Origin: Escherichia phage vB_EcoP-CC1
Direction: 5' to 3' (one strand)
DNA length: 44,532 nt
Sequence record: OX457022
Shown one piece after another: positions 22,509-44,532 of the stretch. Made by a program: the position numbers and the translations under genes. Below the pieces are notes generated by a model. It was not told the DNA's origin, made no database searches, and saw nothing but the letters and a program-made list of their open reading frames with translations. Numbering within the stretch: the stretch's first letter is position 1; every line of letters starts with the position of its first letter.

Positions 22509-22702
22509 TGATAAACTCCGAACTGGTAGATAATGGTGTGAAGCTGGCGCCACCTGCATTAGTCTCAGGTGGGTACTTCCTCGGTATCAGTTGGGACAAT
22601 TTGGTACTGATAGCAACATTCATTTATACAGTGTTGCAGATTGGCGATTGGTTCTATACTAAATATACAATATGGAGGAATAAGCATGAGCGTGCACAAT
22701 AA
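22508..22702 (+). CDS. class II holin (T7 gp17.5-like)
   Basis: 64 aa; segment FIYTVLQIGDWFY resembles T7 holin YTVVQIGAKV; hydrophobic core plus basic C-terminus; RBS AAGGAGG. Confidence 0.7.
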   Translation: MINSELVDNGVKLAPPALVSGGYFLGISWDNLVLIATFIYTVLQIGDWFYTKYTIWRNKHERAQ

Positions 22703-22985
22703 ACATGCAGCCACAGAGGATGAAGTAGGCATCCTTCATGGCGCTATTACGAAGATGTTTAATAAGAAAGCACAGGCTATACTGGACACTATAGAAGAAG
22801 ACCCTGATTCTGCTATGCACTTAGTGTCAGGTAAGGATATTGGAGCCATGTGTAAGTGGGTTTTAGATAATGGCATTACTGCAACCCCTGCTGCACAGCA
22901 GGAAGAATCTAAGTTGTCTAAGCGTCTCAAGGCTATCCGAGAGGCGTCCAGTGGTAAGATCATTCAGTTTACTAAGGAGGATTAA
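22686..22985 (+). CDS. terminase small subunit (gp18-like)
   Basis: 99 aa from ATG 22686 (GGAGGA upstream); immediately precedes terminase large subunit. Confidence 0.55.
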   Translation: MSVHNKHAATEDEVGILHGAITKMFNKKAQAILDTIEEDPDSAMHLVSGKDIGAMCKWVLDNGITATPAAQQEESKLSKRLKAIREASSGKIIQFTKED

Positions 22986-24880
22986 TGGCTAAGGCAAGAG
23001 AATCACAAGCGGAGGCTCTTGCCAGATGGGAGATGCTACACGAGTTACAGCAGACCTTCCCTTATACGGCAGAAGGTTTGCTTCTCTTTGCTGATACAGT
23101 TATTCATAATTTAATTGCAGGTAGTCCTCATCTGATTCGTATGCAGGCAGACATCTTGAAGTTCCTATTCTATGGGCACAAGTATCGCCTCATCGAAGCG
23201 CCCCGTGGTATCGCTAAAACTACGCTGGCAGCAATCTATACGGTGTTCCGTATCATTCATGAGCCTCATAAGCGTATCATGGTTGTATCCCAAAACGCCA
23301 AGCGAGCAGAGGAAATTGCAGGTTGGGTGGTCAAAATCTTCCGAGGATTGGACTTCCTTGAGTTTATGCTACCGGATATATATGCTGGCGACCGTGCATC
23401 CGTCAAGGCATTTGAGATTCACTACACGTTACGCGGCAGCGATAAGTCGCCTTCTGTATCCTGTTACTCTATCGAAGCAGGAATGCAGGGTGCTCGTGCT
23501 GACATCATTCTAGCAGATGACGTTGAATCTATGCAGAATGCGCGTACAGCAGCAGGTCGTGCATTACTTGAGGAACTGACAAAGGAGTTTGAATCTATCA
23601 ACCAGTTTGGTGATATCATCTACCTTGGTACACCTCAGAACGTCAACTCAATCTATAATAACCTTCCGGCTCGTGGTTATTCCGTGCGCATCTGGACTGC
23701 TCGCTATCCTTCGGTAGAACAGGAGCAATGCTATGGTGATTTCCTTGCACCTATGATTGTGCAAGATATGAAGGATAACCCAGCATTGCGAACAGGCTAT
23801 GGTCTGGATGGCAACAGCGGCGCTCCTTGTGCGCCTGAAATGTACGATGATGATGTCCTGATTGAGAAGGAAATCTCACAGGGTGCTGCTAAATTCCAGC
23901 TTCAGTTCATGCTTAACACTCGCATGATGGATGCTGACAGATACCCATTGCGCCTAAACAATCTAATCTTCACCTCATTTGGTACAGAGGAAGTCCCTGT
24001 GATGCCTACGTGGAGTAATGATTCCATTAACATCATTGGGGATGCACCTAAGTATGGCAACAAGCCTACAGATTTCATGTATCGACCTGTGGCACGTCCA
24101 TACGAATGGGGTGCTGTTACACGCAAGATTATGTATATTGACCCCGCTGGTGGCGGTAAGAACGGAGATGAGACTGGTGTAGCCATCGTATTCCTGCACG
24201 GCACATTCATTTATGTGTATCAGTGCTTTGGTGTACCGGGCGGATACCGAGAATCTTCCCTGAATCGCATTGTGCAGGCCGCAAAGCAGGCAGGGGTTAA
24301 AGAGGTATTCATAGAGAAAAACTTTGGTCATGGCGCGTTTGAGGCGGTAATTAAGCCATACTTTGAACGAGAGTGGCCTGTGACACTTGAAGAGGATTAC
24401 GCAACTGGTCAGAAAGAACTCCGCATCATTGAGACGCTAGAGCCATTGATGACCGCGCATAGGCTCATCTTCAATGCGGAAATGGTTAAGTCAGATTTCG
24501 CTTCAGTACAGAACTACCCGCTTGAACTGCGGATGTCTTATAGTCTGTTCCATCAAATGTCGAACATCACTATTGAGAAGAACAGCCTTAGGCATGATGA
24601 CCGCTTAGACGCTCTGTATGGCGCTGTGCGTCAATTAACTTCCCAGATAGACTATGACGAGGTTACTCGAATTAATCGCCTCAGAGCGCAGGAGATGCGC
24701 GATTATATACAGGCGATGAATACACCTAAACTTCGTCGGGCTATGCTGTACGGCGATTATGGTGATGAGCGAAGAACAACCAACACCTCCTTAGCGATGC
24801 AGCAGCGGGTTTACGGTCAGAATTGGAGGAGCCGCTCTGGGTCTAGAAATACACTTTCCTCAAGGATTTCAAGGATTTAG
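22985..24880 (+). CDS. terminase large subunit
   Basis: 631 aa, position and size of T7 gp19; no nucleotide-binding motif could be confirmed by eye. Confidence 0.85.
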   Translation: MAKARESQAEALARWEMLHELQQTFPYTAEGLLLFADTVIHNLIAGSPHLIRMQADILKFLFYGHKYRLIEAPRGIAKTTLAAIYTVFRIIHEPHKRIMVVSQNAKRAEEIAGWVVKIFRGLDFLEFMLPDIYAGDRASVKAFEIHYTLRGSDKSPSVSCYSIEAGMQGARADIILADDVESMQNARTAAGRALLEELTKEFESINQFGDIIYLGTPQNVNSIYNNLPARGYSVRIWTARYPSVEQEQCYGDFLAPMIVQDMKDNPALRTGYGLDGNSGAPCAPEMYDDDVLIEKEISQGAAKFQLQFMLNTRMMDADRYPLRLNNLIFTSFGTEEVPVMPTWSNDSINIIGDAPKYGNKPTDFMYRPVARPYEWGAVTRKIMYIDPAGGGKNGDETGVAIVFLHGTFIYVYQCFGVPGGYRESSLNRIVQAAKQAGVKEVFIEKNFGHGAFEAVIKPYFEREWPVTLEEDYATGQKELRIIETLEPLMTAHRLIFNAEMVKSDFASVQNYPLELRMSYSLFHQMSNITIEKNSLRHDDRLDALYGAVRQLTSQIDYDEVTRINRLRAQEMRDYIQAMNTPKLRRAMLYGDYGDERRTTNTSLAMQQRVYGQNWRSRSGSRNTLSSRISRI

Positions 24881-27233: not shown

Positions 27234-27255
27234 ATTTACTGGACACTATAGAAGG
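27234..27255 (+). promoter_or_regulatory. phage RNAP promoter class I (ATTTACTGGACACTATAGAAGG), +1 G at 27251
   Basis: Family consensus 83 nt upstream of second tailspike ATG. Confidence 0.8.
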
Positions 27256-27333: not shown

Positions 27334-28857
27334 ATGGCTAAACTAACGAGAGTCACTGACTGGCTTGTTAAGGTAAAGTCCAGACTCACTGGTGCAGTAG
27401 AGCGACTGCTTGAAGATAAGTTAAATGACACGGTTAGTGTTAAGGACTTCGGTGCTAAGGGTGACGGTGTGACAGACGACACACAAGCATTTGCTGCCGC
27501 CTCAGCCGCATCGCCTCAAGGTGTTTATGTGCCTGACGGAACATATTTATTACCAGAAGATATTAATGGCAGGTTCTATGGTTCTGGTAAACGCATCAAG
27601 GCTGTAGGTGATGGTGGTATTCCTTTTACCAATGTAGCTCAGTCACATAGTAACCTAATATTAGGATATGATGCTGCAAAGGATTACACGGACGAAGGGA
27701 AAGGCAACCAATTAGTATTACTTGGCCCAAGCTCCGGTCGTAACCTTACCACTGGTACTAACTCCATTGTGGTAGGTGTTGGTGGCCTATCGGGTGATAC
27801 ATTAGAAGATGCACTAACAGATAAATCACCTTTCACTGGTACAGAGATTATTAGCATTGGTATCAATGCTCTTAAGAAAACTACCACTGGTAACAACATG
27901 ATTGGTATTGGTCGTGATGCCCTGAACGAGTGTAAGGATGGAAGATTCAACGTAGCTATAGGTATGTCTGCTTTGCAGCAGCTACACTCTGGTGAGGCTA
28001 ACGTAGCAATAGGGCGTTCAGCCGGTATGCGTACTGGCATCTTCACTAACGAAGATGGTGTACGATTAGGCTATACAAAATGTAGCGGTAATACCTTAAT
28101 AGGTAACGCGGCTGGTCGTGAATTGAAGTCAGGTAATCATAACACCGCCGTAGGCAATGGTGCTATGCGAGGTGTCAGTTCTGATATTAATCCATATACT
28201 GGCACTCTAGAGGGTAATTTTAATACAGCTATTGGTGTTGATACCTTAAACTCCTTAGCATCTGGTGAGTTGAACACCATGATTGGCGCAAGGGCTGGGC
28301 GTAAATTACCTAGTGGCTCTGGTAACATCTTCATCGGTGCGGATGCAGGTGCAGGTATTAACATTGAAAAGTCTAACACTCTCATTATTAACAACCACAC
28401 TGGCTTACCTTTCGTAGAAGGTATTATGGATGGTGCTCAGAGTGAGAATAACTACTTACGTGTTGATGGAAGTGTAGCACCTCAGATTGATAACACAAGA
28501 ACTTGTGGTCAGTCTAGCCGTAGATGGCAGACTGTCTTTTCTACCAATGGTGTTATCCAGACATCGGATGGACGATGCAAGGATGTCTACGATATTGCCA
28601 AGACGGAGTACATGGCTGGTCTAGAGTTATCTTCTAGTATGATTAAGTTCAAATGGACAGATACTAAAGAAGATAAGTATCACTTCGGTTGTCTGGCACA
28701 AGAGGTCATGCTGATTATGGAGAAACATGGGTTAAACCCTCTGGATTATTCCCTCGTTACCTATGATGCTGAAGCAGATATGTATGGTGTTAACTATGCA
28801 GAATTGTCTTGCTTCTGTATCGCAGCAATGTCCAATCATGTACTAGGCAGTGCGTAA
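27334..28857 (+). CDS. tailspike with pectate-lyase-like beta-helix and C-terminal S74-like chaperone domain
   Basis: 507 aa from ATG 27334 (AGGAGA RBS); motif VKDFGAKGDGVTDDTQAF typical of pectate-lyase-fold depolymerases; C-terminal SDGRCKDVYDI chaperone-like motif. Confidence 0.8.
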   Translation: MAKLTRVTDWLVKVKSRLTGAVERLLEDKLNDTVSVKDFGAKGDGVTDDTQAFAAASAASPQGVYVPDGTYLLPEDINGRFYGSGKRIKAVGDGGIPFTNVAQSHSNLILGYDAAKDYTDEGKGNQLVLLGPSSGRNLTTGTNSIVVGVGGLSGDTLEDALTDKSPFTGTEIISIGINALKKTTTGNNMIGIGRDALNECKDGRFNVAIGMSALQQLHSGEANVAIGRSAGMRTGIFTNEDGVRLGYTKCSGNTLIGNAAGRELKSGNHNTAVGNGAMRGVSSDINPYTGTLEGNFNTAIGVDTLNSLASGELNTMIGARAGRKLPSGSGNIFIGADAGAGINIEKSNTLIINNHTGLPFVEGIMDGAQSENNYLRVDGSVAPQIDNTRTCGQSSRRWQTVFSTNGVIQTSDGRCKDVYDIAKTEYMAGLELSSSMIKFKWTDTKEDKYHFGCLAQEVMLIMEKHGLNPLDYSLVTYDAEADMYGVNYAELSCFCIAAMSNHVLGSA

Positions 28858-28870
28858 GCACTGCTTTTCT
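28847..28870 (+). terminator. hairpin terminator overlapping tailspike stop (GCAGTGC-GUAA-GCACTGC then TTTTCT)
   Basis: 7-bp perfect stem, GNRA-type loop containing the stop codon, U-rich tail. Confidence 0.55.
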
Positions 28871-28937
28871 CGCAACTTCCCTTGAAGCAATCTAGCGATA
28901 CCTTCAAGGGAATAGCTCAAGAAAGCAAGGAGGTTTG

Positions 28938-29087
28938 ATGCCGTTGATCAAATCAGTTAAGCAAAGTGCTGTACACCAGAACACAGAAGAACTTATTCAA
29001 TCAGGACGTGACCCTAAGCAGGCCTATGCCATTGCCAAGGATGTACAGCGTCGTGCCATGAAGAAACCTTCTGCATCTTCTGCGTAA
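28938..29087 (+). CDS. hypothetical small basic protein (49 aa)
   Basis: Below ORF-track cutoff; strong RBS AAGGAGG 6 nt upstream of ATG. Confidence 0.4.
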   Translation: MPLIKSVKQSAVHQNTEELIQSGRDPKQAYAIAKDVQRRAMKKPSASSA

Positions 29088-29221
29088 TCAGGTTAATATC
29101 TTAGTGTACACAAGGGCAAACCTATGATAGCTCACAGCACACCTCTGAGTGCCGCTCTGGATTCTATGAATTGTTCCCTGACTATCTAGGTTTGCTCTTA
29201 GTATATTACAAAGGAGGTCAC

Positions 29222-29377
29222 ATGATTTGGATCCACACGTATGGTGTAGGGTCATTCAAGAAGAATGTACTCAGGAAGATCCATGAGTCCGAGGAATCAG
29301 CCTTAGCCAGCCAGAAGGTACTTGGTGGTACTATCCAGTGCTACATGAAGAAGCCACAAGGTTTTGACTTAGTGTAA
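29222..29377 (+). CDS. hypothetical small protein (51 aa)
   Basis: AAAGGAGG RBS 5 nt upstream of ATG 29222 (ORF track begins 29171). Confidence 0.4.
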   Translation: MIWIHTYGVGSFKKNVLRKIHESEESALASQKVLGGTIQCYMKKPQGFDLV

Positions 29378-29430
29378 CCAAAGGTGGTCACAAAGTAACC
29401 AAAGTCAAAATTTTGATGTAGGCGTGTGTC

Positions 29431-29475
29431 AGCCCTCTCGCCCTCGCCCTCGCCGGGTTGTCCCCATAGGGTGGC
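29431..29475. other. GC-rich block in terminal region ((CCCTCG)n then CCCCATAGGG)
   Basis: Non-coding; CCCCATAGGG resembles the CCCCCATAGGGGG element recalled near the T7 left end; candidate terminal-repeat/packaging region. Confidence 0.4.
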
Positions 29476-30092
29476 CTGAGGGAATCCGTCTTCGACGGGC
29501 AGGGCTGATGTACTCCTTGTACTAGCTTAGTAGTACACAAGGGCTGGCCTTTTGTTTTGCCATGTACTAGCAAGGTGGAACGCTGGAGAGCGCCTAGGAC
29601 GGCCTAGGGATGGGCTTAGTGGTGGACAAGGTGATTGCCTTAGTGAAGCCTCTTAGTGCATTCCTGAGGCCATTCAGGGCGTTTATGAGATATTGACAGG
29701 GTGTGCGTGGGTGGGCTATCTGTTCGTTTCGTTCACTCCGCTTGCGCTACGTTCACTCGCTCACGTGTACCTTAGGTTGTTCCTTGATGGATAGCTTAGG
29801 TTAGCCTTAGTGGACTACCTTAGTTATAACCTTAGTGCTTATCTTAGTAATAGCTTAGTAATGTACCTTAGTAAGTCTTAGTGTCTTCTCTTAGTGATTG
29901 CACATGCAAGCATGTAAGATGCCATTAGGTCGCGGTCGGTAGACCGCTAAAGAAAGAGAATAGTAATAAGATGCAGTAGGAGGAACACCAGAAACCTAGC
30001 CAACCTAACCTATCCTAGCTCTGTATCTATTGCTTTTCCTTAGTCTAACATGTGAGACAACCTAGATTTATCTTAGTGATGATAGCTTAGTG

Positions 30093-30121
30093 TTGACAAG
30101 GCCATCTCAATGTAATACTAT
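30093..30121 (+). promoter_or_regulatory. candidate host sigma70 early promoter (TTGACA-17-TACTAT)
   Basis: Perfect -35, 5/6 -10, 17-nt spacer; upstream of early small ORFs. Confidence 0.45.
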
Positions 30122-30193
30122 TCATCACGTAGGCAGCACTGAGGTGCTTAGTAGCCAGCTAGTAAGGCATACGAAGAGACTAGTGCCTGCATT

Positions 30194-30209
30194 GCTCTTT
30201 AACAATTTG
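30194..30209 (+). promoter_or_regulatory. RNase-III-site-like element GCTCTTTAACAATTTG (copy 1)
   Basis: 16-mer repeated exactly at 30805; resembles recalled T7 R0.3 site GCTCTTTAACAATCTGG. Confidence 0.4.
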
Positions 30210-30263
30210 CTTAGTGTAACCTATGTATGCCGTGGTTAATTACTTATTGAATGAGGGTTAACT

Positions 30264-30359
30264 ATGAATTACGAAGAAATGTATGAAGACTACTTCAATT
30301 CACTTGATGAAGGAGAAGAAGCATTGTCCTTTGCTGAGTTTATGGAGGCTTTATCATGA
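30264..30359 (+). CDS. hypothetical early protein (31 aa, acidic)
   Basis: Short ORF with GAGGG upstream; first ORF after terminal region. Confidence 0.3.
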   Translation: MNYEEMYEDYFNSLDEGEEALSFAEFMEALS

Positions 30360-30532
30360 TTCTGAATAACCGTGAACTATCCATTCTCTTCACCTTGTTG
30401 TGCTATATGATTCGTAACAACGAATTACTTACAGACGATGAACTGGCACTATATCACCGTTTCCTTAACGAAGGTTGGGTCGATACAGTTAACCAGAAAC
30501 GTGACTTGATGAAGGAGTTAAGCAATGTTTAA
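30356..30532 (+). CDS. hypothetical early protein (58 aa)
   Basis: ATGA overlap with previous ORF; stop overlaps next ORF start. Confidence 0.35.
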   Translation: MILNNRELSILFTLLCYMIRNNELLTDDELALYHRFLNEGWVDTVNQKRDLMKELSNV

Positions 30533-30734
30533 ACATGAGATTTACACTGATTGCAGTAAATCGGCTAAAGCTATCTGCGATTTGTACAAGGCAGAATGCC
30601 AGACGTACAACCTCAACGATGGTACTGAGATGTTTTATCTTCAGTTTGAAAGCAAGTTATCTCACAAACGAGTGATTAACAGCCTGAATCAACACTCCTT
30701 GGAGTGGGAAGAAGTAAATAGCAATAAAGTTTAA
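30525..30734 (+). CDS. hypothetical early protein (69 aa)
   Basis: GAAGGAG RBS 8 nt upstream. Confidence 0.45.
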   Translation: MFKHEIYTDCSKSAKAICDLYKAECQTYNLNDGTEMFYLQFESKLSHKRVINSLNQHSLEWEEVNSNKV

Positions 30735-30743
30735 ATTAACTAT

Positions 30744-30772
30744 TGACAGCCACGGCATACAAGGTTACATTA
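30744..30772 (+). promoter_or_regulatory. candidate host sigma70 promoter (TTGACA-17-TACATT) upstream of ocr
   Basis: Perfect -35, 4/6 -10. Confidence 0.4.
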
Positions 30773-30804
30773 AGCATCAAGACGGCGACGTCTTTAAACA
30801 TCCC

Positions 30805-30820
30805 GCTCTTTAACAATTTG
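30805..30820 (+). promoter_or_regulatory. RNase-III-site-like element GCTCTTTAACAATTTG (copy 2)
   Basis: Exact repeat of 30194-30209, 94 nt upstream of ocr ATG, same relative position as R0.3 in T7. Confidence 0.45.
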
Positions 30821-30913
30821 GATGGTAGCTTCTTAGTCTGGATAGGTTAAACCTAGGGGATTCTCTTGAGTCTCCTATAATGTAACCTAACTAACTAAAT
30901 GAGGATTAATAAC

Positions 30914-31273
30914 ATGACTATGTCTAATATGACTTACTCTCAGGTTTACAACACCGCTCATGCTGCATTAGTTGAACGTATCTGGAATGATGCTATTGAT
31001 TGTATCGATAACGCACATGATGCAATCCATGAGGTAGCGGACAGTGCTGTACCAATCTATTATGCTGACATCTTCTCAGTGATGGCGAGTGAAGGTATTG
31101 ATCACTTCTTCGAAGACTCCGGCCTGATGCCAGATACTAAGGATGTAACGGTCGTACTACAAGCCCGTATTTATGAACAACTCACCATTGATTTATGGGA
31201 ACGTGTTCAAGATATGATTGTTGCGTACACCAATTACGCTGAGGATTCAGAAGAAGAAGAAGAGGAAGAATAA
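30914..31273 (+). CDS. ocr: Ocr (T7 gene 0.3-like DNA-mimic anti-restriction protein)
   Basis: MTMSNMTY...[42 protein letters not shown]...[14 protein letters not shown] plus poly-Glu tail matches recalled T7 Ocr nearly residue for residue; GAGGA RBS. Confidence 0.85.
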
Positions 31274-32690: not shown

Positions 32691-35318
32691 ATGCAAGATC
32701 TACACGCTATTCAGCTTCAGCTTGAGGAAGAAATGTTTAACGGCGGTATTCGTCGCTTTGAAGCAGACCAACAACGCCAGATTGCATCAGGTAATGAATC
32801 CGATACGGCATGGAATCGTCGCCTGTTGTCGGAGCTTATCGCACCTATGGCGGAAGGTATTCAGGCTTATAAGGAAGCCTACGAAGGAAAGAAAGGACGC
32901 GCACCGCGTGCACTGGCCTTCATTAACTGCGTAGAGAACGAAGTGGCAGCATATATCACGATGAAGATCGTAATGGATATGCTTAACACAGATGTAACCT
33001 TGCAAGCCATAGCAATGAATGTAGCTGATCGCATCGAAGATCAAGTACGCTTCAGCAAGCTGGAAGGCCACGCCGCCAAATACTTTGAAAAAGTTAAGAA
33101 GTCACTCAAGGCAAGTAAGACTAAATCATATCGCCATGCGCACAACGTAGCGGTAGTGGCTGAGAAGTCAGTAGCTGACCGTGACACTGATTTCTCCCGC
33201 TGGGAGGCGTGGCCTAAAGATACCTTACTGCAAATCGGTATGACCTTGCTAGAAATACTGGAGAATAGCGTATTCTTCAATGGTCAACCTGTCTTCCTCC
33301 GCACCTTGCGCACTAATGGTGGCAAGCATGGTGTTTACTACTTACAGACCAGTGAGCACGTAGGGGAGTGGGTTACAGCATTTAAAGAACATGTAGCGCA
33401 ACTTAGTCCGGCCTATGCACCTTGCGTCATTCCTCCGCGCCCTTGGGTGTCCCCTTTTAATGGTGGGTTTCATACTGAGAAGGTGGCAAGTCGCATCCGT
33501 TTGGTAAAAGGCAACCGTGAGCACGTCCGTAAGCTGACCAAAAAGCAAATGCCAGCAGTTTATAAGGCTGTTAATGCTTTACAGGCCACTAAGTGGCAAG
33601 TTAACAAAGAAGTTTTGCAGGTAGTAGAAGACGTTATCCGTCTCGACCTTGGTTATGGTGTACCTTCCTTTAAACCACTCATCGACCGCGAGAACAAGCC
33701 GGCTAACCCAGTGCCGTTAGAATTTCAACACTTGCGAGGCCGCGAACTGAAGGAAATGTTAACGCCGGAACAATGGCAAGCCTTCATCAACTGGAAAGGT
33801 GAATGCACCAAGCTGTATACCGCTGAGACTAAGCGCGGAAGTAAGTCGGCGGCAACCGTTCGCATGGTAGGACAAGCGCGCAAATACAGCCAGTTTGATG
33901 CGATTTATTTCGTGTATGCACTGGATAGCCGCTCACGCGTTTATGCGCAATCTAGCACACTCTCACCGCAATCAAACGACCTAGGCAAGGCGTTACTGCG
34001 TTTTACCGAAGGGCAGCCGCTAAATAGCTCTGAGGCGCTTAAATGGTTTTTGGTGAACGGGGCGAATAACTGGGGTTGGGATAAGAAGACTTTCGACGTG
34101 CGCACCGCTAACGTACTGGACGGCGAGTTTCAAGATATGTGCCGCGACATTGCAGCGGATCCTCTGACCTTTACTCAATGGGTAAATGCCGATTCACCTT
34201 ATGGATTCCTTGCATGGTGCTTTGAGTATGCTCGTTATTTGGATGCACTGGATGAAGGAACACAAGATCAGTTTGTGACGCATTTACCTGTTCATCAAGA
34301 TGGTAGCTGTTCTGGCATCCAGCACTACAGTGCTATGCTACGCGACGAAGTGGGTGCGAAGGCGGTAAACCTTAAACCATCCGACTCGCCTCAAGATATT
34401 TATGGAGCGGTTGCGCAGGTTGTTATCCAGAAGAACTACGCCTACATGAATGCAGATGATACAGAAACTTTCACATCTGGAAGCGTAACACTTACAGGTG
34501 CAGAACTGCGCAGCATGGCTAACGCGTGGGATATGATTGGGATCACTCGCGGCTTAACCAAAAAGCCAGTAATGACCTTGCCATACGGCTCCACCCGCTT
34601 AACCTGCCGTGAATCGGTGATTGATTATATCGTTGATTTGGAAGAAAAAGAGGCGCAGAGAGCTGTTGCCGAAGGGCGGACGGCTAATCCTGTGCACCCT
34701 TTTGATAATGACCGTAAAGACTATCTGACACCTGGTGCAGCTTACAACTATATGACCGCTTTAATTTGGCCTTCTATCTCTGAGGTTGTTAAAGCGCCTA
34801 TAGTGGCGATGAAAATGATTCGCCAGCTTGCACGATTCGCAGCTAAAAGAAACGAAGGGTTAGAGTACACCTTACCCACTGGTTTCATCTTGCAGCAAAA
34901 GATAATGGCTACCGACATGCTACGCGTATCCACTTGCTTGATGGGTGAAATCAAGATGAGTCTACAGATTGAGACTGATGTAGTGGATGAAACGGCAATG
35001 ATGGGCGCTGCCGCTCCTAACTTTGTTCACGGTCATGATGCGAGTCACCTTATTCTGACTGTATGTGACCTAGTTGACAAAGGTATTACATCAATTGCAG
35101 TTATTCATGACTCTTTCGGAACTCATGCAGGCCGTACATCAGATCTTCGTGATAGCTTAAGGGCAGAAATGGTTAAGATGTATCAAGGGCGTAACGCCTT
35201 GCAGCAATTGCTGGATGAGCATGAAGAACGTTGGTTGGTGGACACTGGCATTCAAGTGCCGGAACAAGGGGAGTTTAACCTTGAAGAGATATTAGTTTCT
35301 GACTATTGTTTTGCATAA
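32691..35318 (+). CDS. single-subunit DNA-directed RNA polymerase (SP6-type)
   Basis: 875 aa; N-terminus [32 protein letters not shown] and C-terminus ending DYCFA agree with recalled SP6 RNAP; AGGAG RBS. Confidence 0.95.
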
Positions 35319-44225: not shown

Positions 44226-44519
44226 ATGCCGACTATTGAAGAACGTTTCCTGATTCACGTAGACTTCTCACCCATACATCTTGGTTATCTTATCACTATT
44301 CTCTTAGGAGAGGAGGTTTATCTACATAATTACCTTATACCTGAATATGTATGTTTTAGGGATAAGATACACCCGCTTACTTGGGCACAAGAGTGGCTGC
44401 GTGAACATGTGCTGAAGGAGTGGCCTACATGCGACCAAACTTCGACTTCGGAGCTACAGTATCGGAAGACAATAATCTCATCCTGTGGCCGACTGAAGGT
44501 GAGAGAATCGCTCTCATAG
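44226..44519 (+). CDS. hypothetical protein spanning the contig junction
   Basis: 97-codon ORF with GGAGA RBS; runs into the duplicated 127 nt and would overlap exonuclease start by about 90 nt in another frame. Confidence 0.3.
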   Translation: MPTIEERFLIHVDFSPIHLGYLITILLGEEVYLHNYLIPEYVCFRDKIHPLTWAQEWLREHVLKEWPTCDQTSTSELQYRKTIISSCGRLKVRESLS

Positions 44520-44532
44520 ATGCTGACATGTT
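44406..44532. repeat. terminal overlap of the contig (identical to 1-127)
   Basis: Exact 127-nt identity with window start. Confidence 0.95.

Follow-up and report, generated by a model that had tools for sequence, protein, structure and literature searches.

The window analyzed here is the whole stretch of 44,532 nucleotides, and its genes are co-linear, all lying in one orientation. Around the block that concerns us, the DNA is 100% identical to that of Escherichia phage vB_EcoP-CC2 (OX638290.1; Vectrevirus, Molineuxvirinae, Autographiviridae), which falls in the K1-5/SP6 branch within the T7 supergroup. Between the last late ORF and the first early ORF is a gene-free gap of 886 bp (29378-30263), and the block, at 29431-29475 (AGCCCTCTCGCCCTCGCCCTCGCCGGGTTGTCCCCATAGGGTGGC), is located near its start. 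The two small late ORFs that precede the gap match PHROGs 2423 and 3955, and an ocr-like gene is found at 30899, past the gap and the first early ORFs. The junction described below is the expected substrate of the two terminase subunits (Table 1), and the large subunit is assigned to the T7/SP6 type. A single-subunit RNA polymerase is also encoded, and 12 exact copies of the SP6-type promoter core ACACTATAG are present in the window, every one of them on the plus strand. Transcripts from the last such promoter upstream of the junction would run toward the terminal repeat, and a search of 28800-31000 for plus-strand terminator-like sites found none.

Table 1. Features of the predicted concatemer junction and of the genes and promoter relevant to it, with conservation across 11 aligned junctions (percentage of invariant columns; mean pairwise identity). 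A slash within a sequence marks a cut.
Feature	Coordinates	Strand	Details
Terminase small subunit	22641-22985	+	PHROG 891, E = 5e-26
Terminase large subunit	22985-24880	+	PHROG 17672/38, E = 9e-241; named in the record "Terminase, large subunit gp19"
Last SP6-type phage promoter upstream of junction	27234-27254	+	ATTTACTGGACACTATAGAAG
Segment further upstream	29300-29394		3% invariant; identity 0.46
Conserved flank outside repeat (end of unique right end)	29395-29435	+	AACCAAAGTCAAAATTTTGATGTAGGCGTGTGTCAGCCC; conserved including SP6; 48% invariant; identity 0.85
Perfect 12-bp palindrome TCAAAATTTTGA	29405-29416		In flank, 20 nt upstream of left cut; conserved in SP6
GGCGTGTGTCAG	29421-29432	+	Within conserved flank
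Predicted left terminus and left-end cut	29434-29438; best guess between 29435 and 29436	+	Genome would start TCTCGCC; from deposited starts
Predicted direct terminal repeat	29436-29718	+	About 283 bp; both boundaries orthologous to those of six relatives' repeats
Block (part inside repeat)	29436-29475		85% invariant (34/40); identity 0.96
Palindrome CCGTC-TTC-GACGG	29486-29498		Inside repeat; hairpin-capable; lineage-specific
Repeat interior	29511-29692		6% invariant; identity 0.57
Conserved island over right boundary	29693-29731	+	TTGACAGGGTGTGCGTGGGTGGGCTA/TCTGTTCGTTTCG
Last 26 nt of repeat	29693-29718		40% invariant; identity 0.79
ATCTGTT	29718-29724	+	Identical to core of T7 class II pause/termination signal
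Predicted right-end cut	between 29718 and 29719	+	From ends of relatives' deposited repeats
First 13 nt past repeat	29719-29731		77% invariant; identity 0.91
Next 36 nt	29732-29767		1% invariant; identity 0.43
CTTAGT array	29806-29895	+	8 copies at 10-13 nt spacing; kept in relatives
Single-subunit RNA polymerase	32691-35318		PHROG 414, E = 6e-290

The block is made up of two recognizable parts. Tandem Repeats Finder (TRF) reports 3.0 copies of CTCGCC at 29437-29454 with 100% identity, and GGGTTGTCCCCATAGGGTGGCC comes next; these three units are predicted to form the extreme left end of the terminal repeat. The second part, CCCCATAGGG, is found at 29462-29471, 27-36 nt from the predicted terminus at 29436. 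It has one copy in the window, and the more general motif C4-(A/G)-TAG also occurs a single time with both strands combined. The sequence-only reading had described this arrangement as a (CCCTCG)n run followed by a C-run element, and had called it the most GC-rich non-coding segment present. The first description is borne out by the two parts just given, and the second holds more widely than was claimed: with 73% G+C in 29431-29475 against 45% window-wide, the block is the GC peak of the entire window, coding DNA included. Only 11 of 44,488 windows of 45 nt reach 73%, all of them in a single cluster with starts at 29420-29439, and across all 44.5 kb the maxima for 30-, 60- and 100-nt windows likewise fall on the block.

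The form in which the window was assembled bears directly on how the block is to be interpreted. Its first 127 nt are exactly its last 127 nt, and the CC2 record has a like 127-nt overlap but is opened at another point; the two are one substitution and one homopolymer indel apart and are not related by a plain rotation. In view of these end overlaps and different opening points, both are circular short-read assemblies with arbitrary openings, and the unique length of the circle is 44,405 bp. No second copy of 29436-29718 is present anywhere in the window. For phages with short direct terminal repeats (DTRs), short-read assemblers are known to collapse the repeat into a circle that carries one copy (PMC5557969, PMC10438801). 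The window is thus predicted to represent the concatemer-junction form, with the unique right end running to 29435, one collapsed copy of the repeat following, and the unique left end beginning at 29719. The CC2 record carries no annotated ends or repeat, and the terminal repeat is collapsed there too; the reads belong to ENA study PRJEB59323, named in PMC10433417.

The deposited genomes of six relatives are linear and carry an exact repeat of 174-304 bp at each end: SP6 (NC_004831; 174 bp), K1-5 (AY370674; 234 bp), RoP3a (283 bp), R4596 (285 bp), mutPK1A2 (286 bp) and VEc3 (304 bp). The starts of all six fall in the run ...CAGC TC TC/TCGCCCTCGCCCTCGCCGGGTTGTCCCCATAGGG. When further records with explicit ends are included, the deposited starts are equivalent to 29434 (SP6), 29436 (R4596, EEc2, EEc4 and fTuEco01), 29437 (VEc3, RoP3a and mutPK1A2) and 29438 (K1-5), a spread of 5 nt inside the TC run. 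At the other boundary, the six repeats end ...GGGCTA and are followed by TCTGTTCG, which corresponds to the step from 29718 to 29719 in the window. Two contigs lend support to this boundary: AAPEc6 (L020) terminates exactly at this GGGCTA, and a metagenome contig (L019) stops 6 nt before it. At the left boundary, the records of ACG-C91 and of one Proteus phage end 2 nt short. There is one outlier, UAB_Phi78, in which the DTR is annotated as bases 1-180 of a record beginning 15 nt further left, and in which the annotated DTR is about 10 nt shorter at the right than the window-equivalent boundary would give. The ends of this phage were determined by run-off sequencing (PMC4837284). Several relatives' records label the region as a DTR, a redundant repeat or a repeat_region, the last of these being the term used for RoP3a and mutPK1A2.

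Judged by this homology, the block very probably is the left end of a short direct terminal repeat, at the cut site, in a phage of the K1-5/SP6 type, and would constitute the terminus-proximal 40 nt or so of that repeat. Predicted positions are 29436 ± 2 for the left terminus and 29718 ± 1 for the repeat's right boundary, which would give a virion genome of about 44,405 + 283 = 44,688 bp. The earlier suggestion of a terminal repeat or packaging site is in line with the deposited data, in that the starts of no fewer than nine related records with explicit ends fall at equivalents of 29434-29438, and no relative has deposited ends that map far from this region. The interval of 29.38-29.60 kb that had been proposed for the ends needs amending: it contains the left start, but by homology the repeat extends beyond it, to 29718. 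As a feature, the terminal repeat is known already, both in kind and, given that the first 79 nt of the K1-5 record match window positions 29438-29516, in sequence; only the CC2 record is unannotated.

A quite different mode of packaging, by the headful (pac) mechanism with permuted ends, would reduce the block to a recognition site of the pac type or to a regulatory element, and it would not be a fixed terminus. The closure of the assembly into a circle and the lack of annotated ends in the CC2 record would both be expected in such a case, but assemblers normally give a collapsed circle for phages with short DTRs (PMC5557969, PMC10438801). Furthermore, close relatives have been deposited with exact repeats at fixed ends, several of them annotated as DTR, the ends of UAB_Phi78 were determined by the run-off sequencing cited above (PMC4837284), and the large terminase subunit belongs to the T7/SP6 type. 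Headful packaging is, on this evidence, extremely improbable.

An alignment of 11 junctions was assembled from CC2, K1-5, SP6, R4596, VEc3, RoP3a and five IMG/VR contigs, the last retrieved by the pattern GCCGGGNTGTCCCCATAGGGT. Conservation is concentrated in two islands that lie exactly at the two repeat boundaries, and the block is the best conserved segment of the junction (Table 1); the interior of the repeat carries large indels. The element CCCCATAGGG is invariant in 11 of 11 junctions. The CTCGCC triplication is invariant in all Vectrevirus-like junctions, and SP6 and UAB_Phi78 carry CTCGGC CTCGGC CTCGCC, with the same change in two units. A 91-nt core at the left boundary is present in 139 phage records, with hosts from Escherichia, Klebsiella, Salmonella, Proteus, Citrobacter, Lelliottia, Raoultella and Pectobacterium. 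The conserved flank at 29395-29435 adjoins the block in the concatemer junction and not in virion DNA, which is the main argument that the left island serves as a processing site recognized ahead of cutting. By analogy with T7/T3 biology, recognition (PacB) and cleavage (PacC) functions would reside in the junction (PMC9860248).

In T7-like phages the left end of the genome enters the cell first. The block could accordingly be a cis-element of the leading genome end, concerned with ejection and entry, end protection or replication and not with cutting by terminase; examples would be a hold in the portal or tail channel, a GC clamp against fraying or exonucleases, or a role in priming or in recombination of the repeat. 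Such a reading still places the block at the left end of the DTR and only assigns it a different job. It would fit the position of the block at the end that enters first and the presence of GC-rich (CTCGCC)3 at the very tip. It also draws support from the retention of the C-run and (A/G)TAG across subfamilies whose terminases have diverged, and the connection of terminase to the block is itself one that we infer. Against this, conservation reaches about 40 nt outside the repeat, into sequence that adjoins the block only in the concatemer junction, and the tip of the T7 genome is not GC-rich, so that a GC clamp is no requirement of the family. We regard a leading-end function as unlikely. That the block is instead read by terminase, rather than serving ejection or end protection, is a proposal to which we give slightly less than even credence.

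Several structural explanations were also considered. The sequence-only reading had pointed to a long-range inverted repeat bracketing the block, and this is indeed present, with arms CAGCCCT at 29430-29436 and AGGGCTG at 29501-29507 that extend to 17 nt with 76% complementarity; the significance attached to it does not survive. Folding of the DNA at 29420-29517 gives z = -1.8, with 8 of 200 shuffles folding as well, and the heptamer AGGGCTG has six copies in the window. One of the arms lies outside the repeat. In most relatives CAGCTCT takes the place of the left arm, in RoP3a GGGGTGT does, and SP6 has a deletion of the right arm. A functional hairpin was rejected on the grounds of this marginal fold and the unconserved arms, and the bracketing repeat is probably incidental.

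A smaller hairpin within CCCCATAGGG likewise appears unlikely. Only CCC and GGG can pair in this context, although mutPK1A2 has a perfect CCCCATATGGGG, and the DNA of the block folds no better than shuffled sequence (z = -0.7, -0.2 and -0.04). Moreover, T3, K1F and phiKMV keep the C-run and (A/G)TAG with no complementary G-run, which indicates that it is the sequence and not the pairing that is conserved. As far as these comparisons go, conservation thus attaches to a short sequence placed at a set distance from the end and not to a hairpin. An intrinsic terminator or structured RNA was discounted, there being no plus-strand terminator-like site, no better-than-shuffled fold, no Rfam family over the region at E ≤ 1 and no tRNA. 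A minus-strand ORF at 29388-29573 (61 aa) was rejected as coding because it has no PHROG match and is broken in frame by indels in relatives. Some relatives' records do set "hypothetical protein" CDSs across the repeat region, and these, together with the 17-nt arms and the CCC and GGG that surround ATA, are what would favor a structural element (a hairpin, terminator or small RNA) or a piece of coding sequence. Set against the folding, conservation and database results above, we consider the chance that the block is any of these to be very small.

At the right boundary the most distinctive feature is the heptamer ATCTGTT. At the T7 concatemer junction it serves as the class II signal (bioRxiv 10.1101/2021.01.11.426313; PMC11617373), and in T7, the only phage for which this is known, RNA polymerase pauses 6-8 nt downstream of it and the pause is needed for concatemer processing (bioRxiv 10.1101/2021.01.11.426313; PMC3276506). 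According to the summary given in PMC3276506, citing Zhang & Studier 2004, the T7 polymerase paused at this site is reported to engage gp18/gp19 and start maturation. The window contains one sense-strand copy, that at 29718-29724, compared with six antisense copies. In the whole genomes of CC2, K1-5 and SP6 together there are three sense copies, each at the repeat boundary, against about 10 expected under a first-order Markov model, a comparison whose P-value is optimistic, the three genomes being related; antisense copies in the same genomes number nine against 12.7 expected. The sense-strand pattern is repeated at the IMG/VR loci. ATCTGTT is counter-selected on the sense strand outside the repeat boundary, and this avoidance lends indirect support to a possible pause of the phage polymerase here. 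The heptamer lacks a T-run directly after it (ATCTGTTCGTTTCG), which, as at the T7 junction, would favor pausing over termination. The conserved TTGACA at 29693-29698 was examined as the start of a sigma-70 promoter; this was rejected, no acceptable -10 hexamer being found after it, and the hexamer is treated as part of the right-boundary island.

The closest known counterparts are the direct terminal repeats of K1-5 and SP6. Besides the 79-nt match to K1-5, the window shares with these phages the left boundary ...CAGC(TC)n/TCGCC... and the right boundary ...GGGCTA/TCTGTTCG, and the location of the repeat, with the last late ORFs (gp48/49-like) on one side and the early genes on the other. The repeat is about 283 bp here, longer than that of either phage as a result of interior indels, and the window phage has C for T two bases before the predicted cut (CAGCCC/TCTC compared with CAGCTC/TCTC).

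A resemblance of the block to the T7 left-end element had been noted from the outset, and this is upheld in terms of position: a C-run with ATAG is found at a matching distance in T7, T3 and SP6, without an alignable junction sequence. For T7 against CC2, 156 of 500 shuffles score as well at the left junction and 81 of 500 at the right. Overall homology between the T7/T3 and CC2/SP6 junctions was rejected on the same basis, dinucleotide shuffles doing as well in 156/500 and 147/500 cases at the left and in 81/500 and 66/500 at the right. What supports the parallel with T7 is therefore a set of short motifs that occur at corresponding positions. The records of T7, T3, K1F and SP6 each begin TCTC, as the window phage genome is predicted to do. 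In T7 and T3, ATCTGTT is found at the right edge of the repeat as in the SP6 group, although the deposited right end lies one base earlier (CCCT/ATCTGTT compared with GGGCTA/TCTGTT). Host-type early promoters and an ocr-like first gene follow the repeat in T7 as they do here. Unlike the window, T7 has no (CTCGCC)3 at its tip, and its phage promoters phiOL and phiOR lie within a few hundred bp of the repeat, whereas the window has no phage promoter closer upstream than about 2.2 kb, and the DNA just downstream of the repeat yielded none.

One of these short motifs is the C-run with (A/G)TAG. In T7 it is CCCCCATAGGGGG at positions 26-38, thus beginning at +26 and ending at +38. It begins at +26 in T3, +27 in K1F, +29 in SP6, +25 in K1-5 (+25 to +27 in K1-5-like phages) and +28 in Era103; KP34 (Slopekvirinae) has CCCCCATAGGGGG at +26. 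The variant CCCCCGTAGG is found at about +26-27 in gh-1 and phiKMV (Krylovirinae), and LKA1 and Syn5 retain the C-run alone, without the TAG part. In the window phage and the relatives listed, C4-8 followed by (A/G)TAG thus sits some 25-38 nt from the left terminus, and it has been kept in at least four subfamilies (Studiervirinae, Molineuxvirinae, Slopekvirinae and Krylovirinae) whose junctions are not alignable. The motif C4-(A/G)-TAG has a frequency of about one per 89 kb of CC2 sequence with both strands counted, and the recurrence of so rare a motif within a 7-nt positional window in four subfamilies argues that its placement is not due to chance. A literature search for CCCATAGGG, CCCCATAG and CCCCCATAGGGGG, conducted outside the primary genome papers, returned no paper naming the element. 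Whether it amounts to a family-wide Autographiviridae cis-signal that places the left-end (terminating) cut of terminase is a bolder question, and an affirmative answer seems to us somewhat unlikely. Were it so, the C-run with (A/G)TAG, the TCT after both cuts and the unique sense-strand ATCTGTT would together make up a universal two-site "junction code", which could predict the termini of any T7-like genome from sequence alone.

A working model of how the junction might be processed can be drawn from these elements and from the biology of T7 and T3. Replication would generate concatemers of genomes joined head to tail, each junction holding a single repeat. Moving rightward from late promoters, the phage RNA polymerase would pause at ATCTGTT and help to recruit terminase, which would then cut or nick at the boundary islands, between 29435 and 29436 and between 29718 and 29719, with TCT following each cut. 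Duplication of the repeat by 3' extension would give virion DNA with a repeat at both ends; cutting by terminase, or nicking followed by 3' extension, at both boundaries would supply each genome with a full repeat (PMC5557969, PMC10438801). Within this scheme, (CTCGCC)3 and CCCCATAGGG, together with the 40 or so conserved bases to their left, would be the most likely recognition context for the left-end cut, and what the family shares of the left-end site would be C4-(A/G)-TAG, located 25-38 bp in from the end. If packaging proceeds from right to left as in T7, the left-end cut beside the block would be the terminating one. In this model the chemistry of cutting, the pausing of the polymerase, the identity of the reader protein and the precise base cut (±2 nt) are inferences.

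The practical value of these assignments lies mainly in annotation. CC2 (OX638290) and many relatives have been opened arbitrarily and lack the second copy of the repeat, and the "hypothetical protein" calls placed over the repeat in some relatives are spurious. Such genomes can be re-oriented and completed from sequence alone by means of the left boundary signature ...GGCGTGTGTCAG../TCTCGCCCTCGCC...CCCCATAGGG and the right boundary signature TTGACAGG...GGGCTA/TCTGTT. Defined ends matter when phages are to be rebooted synthetically, when transducing particles are designed and in dossiers on therapeutic phages. The biology itself is as expected: a K1-5-like phage follows the logic of the T7 junction, its cut-site islands being conserved, the interior of its repeat variable and a pause signal located at the right edge. 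Only the recurrence across the family of the C-run with (A/G)TAG, at a constant distance from the end, is mildly novel.

Two further repeated elements lie in or near the terminal repeat. The palindrome at 29486-29498 has a DNA fold of -4.1 kcal/mol (z = -1.45). Its loop varies between relatives (TTC, TCC, GAA and GGA), with the exact reverse complement in VEc3, and it is missing in SP6, L014 and L016. The hexamer CTTAGT has 57 copies on both strands of the window compared with 29.6 expected, a number reached in none of 100 shuffles. On the plus strand, 20 of its 35 copies fall within the 1.1 kb of 29100-30215, on both sides of the terminal repeat and extending into it, in a single orientation and enriched about 60-fold, and TRF reports period-24 arrays at 29768-29874. 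The same CTTAGT arrays are present downstream of the repeat in K1-5 and SP6. Short oriented repeats also flank the terminal repeat of T7, where the motif is CCTAAAG, in arrays that we take to be those named SRL and SRR (Dunn & Studier).

In the three whole genomes of the window phage, K1-5 and SP6, the sense-strand heptamer ATCTGTT, the core of the T7 class II polymerase pause site, is confined to the right edge of the terminal repeat, although some 10 copies would be expected. No depletion of the motif was found on the antisense strand of the same three genomes.

Features of the predicted terminal-repeat junction and its surroundings (window coordinates unless another genome is named)
Feature	Coordinates	Strand or orientation	Remark
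ATCTGTT	29718-29724	sense
ATCTGTT, K1-5	234-240	sense
ATCTGTT, SP6	174-180	sense
Perfect 12-bp palindrome TCAAAATTTTGA	29405-29416		20 nt upstream of predicted left cut
Perfect 6-bp stem GCGGTC-GGTA-GACCGC	29932-29947		early leader
CTTAGT repeats	29100-30215	single orientation throughout	densest at 29806-29895
SP6-type phage promoters, consensus ATTTACTGGACACTATAGAAG	2451-43730	plus, all	12 sites

The palindrome upstream of the predicted left cut, which is kept in the junctions of SP6 and of Vectrevirus phages and is degenerate in LL11, might be bound by a dimeric protein or might form a bend. Within the repeat, VEc3 has CCGTCGAAGACGG where the window has CCGTCTTCGACGG (29486-29498), each being the exact reverse complement of the other, and the loops in other relatives are TCC or GGA. 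The VEc3 exchange resembles the inversion of a hairpin loop and suggests that this palindrome extrudes, at least occasionally. The stem in the early leader, for which there was no Rfam match, is kept in one relative (L014) and in part in LL11.

The LL11 junction (MH729818) also carries a G-rich insertion, GGGGGAGGGGGGGGGGGAGGGG, within the right-boundary island, just short of the repeat's right edge. Its 40-nt GC-rich block at the left tip of the repeat is unaltered despite a divergent flank upstream of the left cut.

Near the junction CTTAGT is enriched approximately 60-fold, which parallels the CCTAAAG arrays that T7 carries around its own repeat. The arrangement of promoters, in contrast, differs from that of T7, in which phiOL and phiOR are located near the repeat; in the window, no SP6-type promoter lies in the 2 kb upstream of the terminal repeat or in the 5 kb that follow it.

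Two annotation discrepancies are found among the relatives. The direct terminal repeat (DTR) feature of UAB_Phi78 (NC_020414.2, 1-180) begins 15 nt upstream of the SP6-type terminus, and just one copy is present in the record; the repeat of R4596 was given as 428 bp by Korf et al. (PMC6563267), whereas exactly 285 bp are common to both ends of its record (MK373771). Furthermore, coding sequences annotated as 'hypothetical protein' are drawn across the terminal repeat in several relatives (MZ234019, MZ234020, MZ234032, PV717788 and others), and are probably spurious gene calls in non-coding junction DNA.

Positions 1-127 of the window are identical to 44406-44532 over all 127 nt. This is a k-mer overlap from circular assembly, which leaves 44,405 bp of unique sequence. 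The record of Escherichia phage vB_EcoP-CC2 (OX638290.1) has a 127-nt overlap of like kind, with its opening point 12 kb away from that of the window. Compared with this record, the window has one substituted base (window 21366, G versus T) and a single indel in a homopolymer (window 38893, A7 versus A6).
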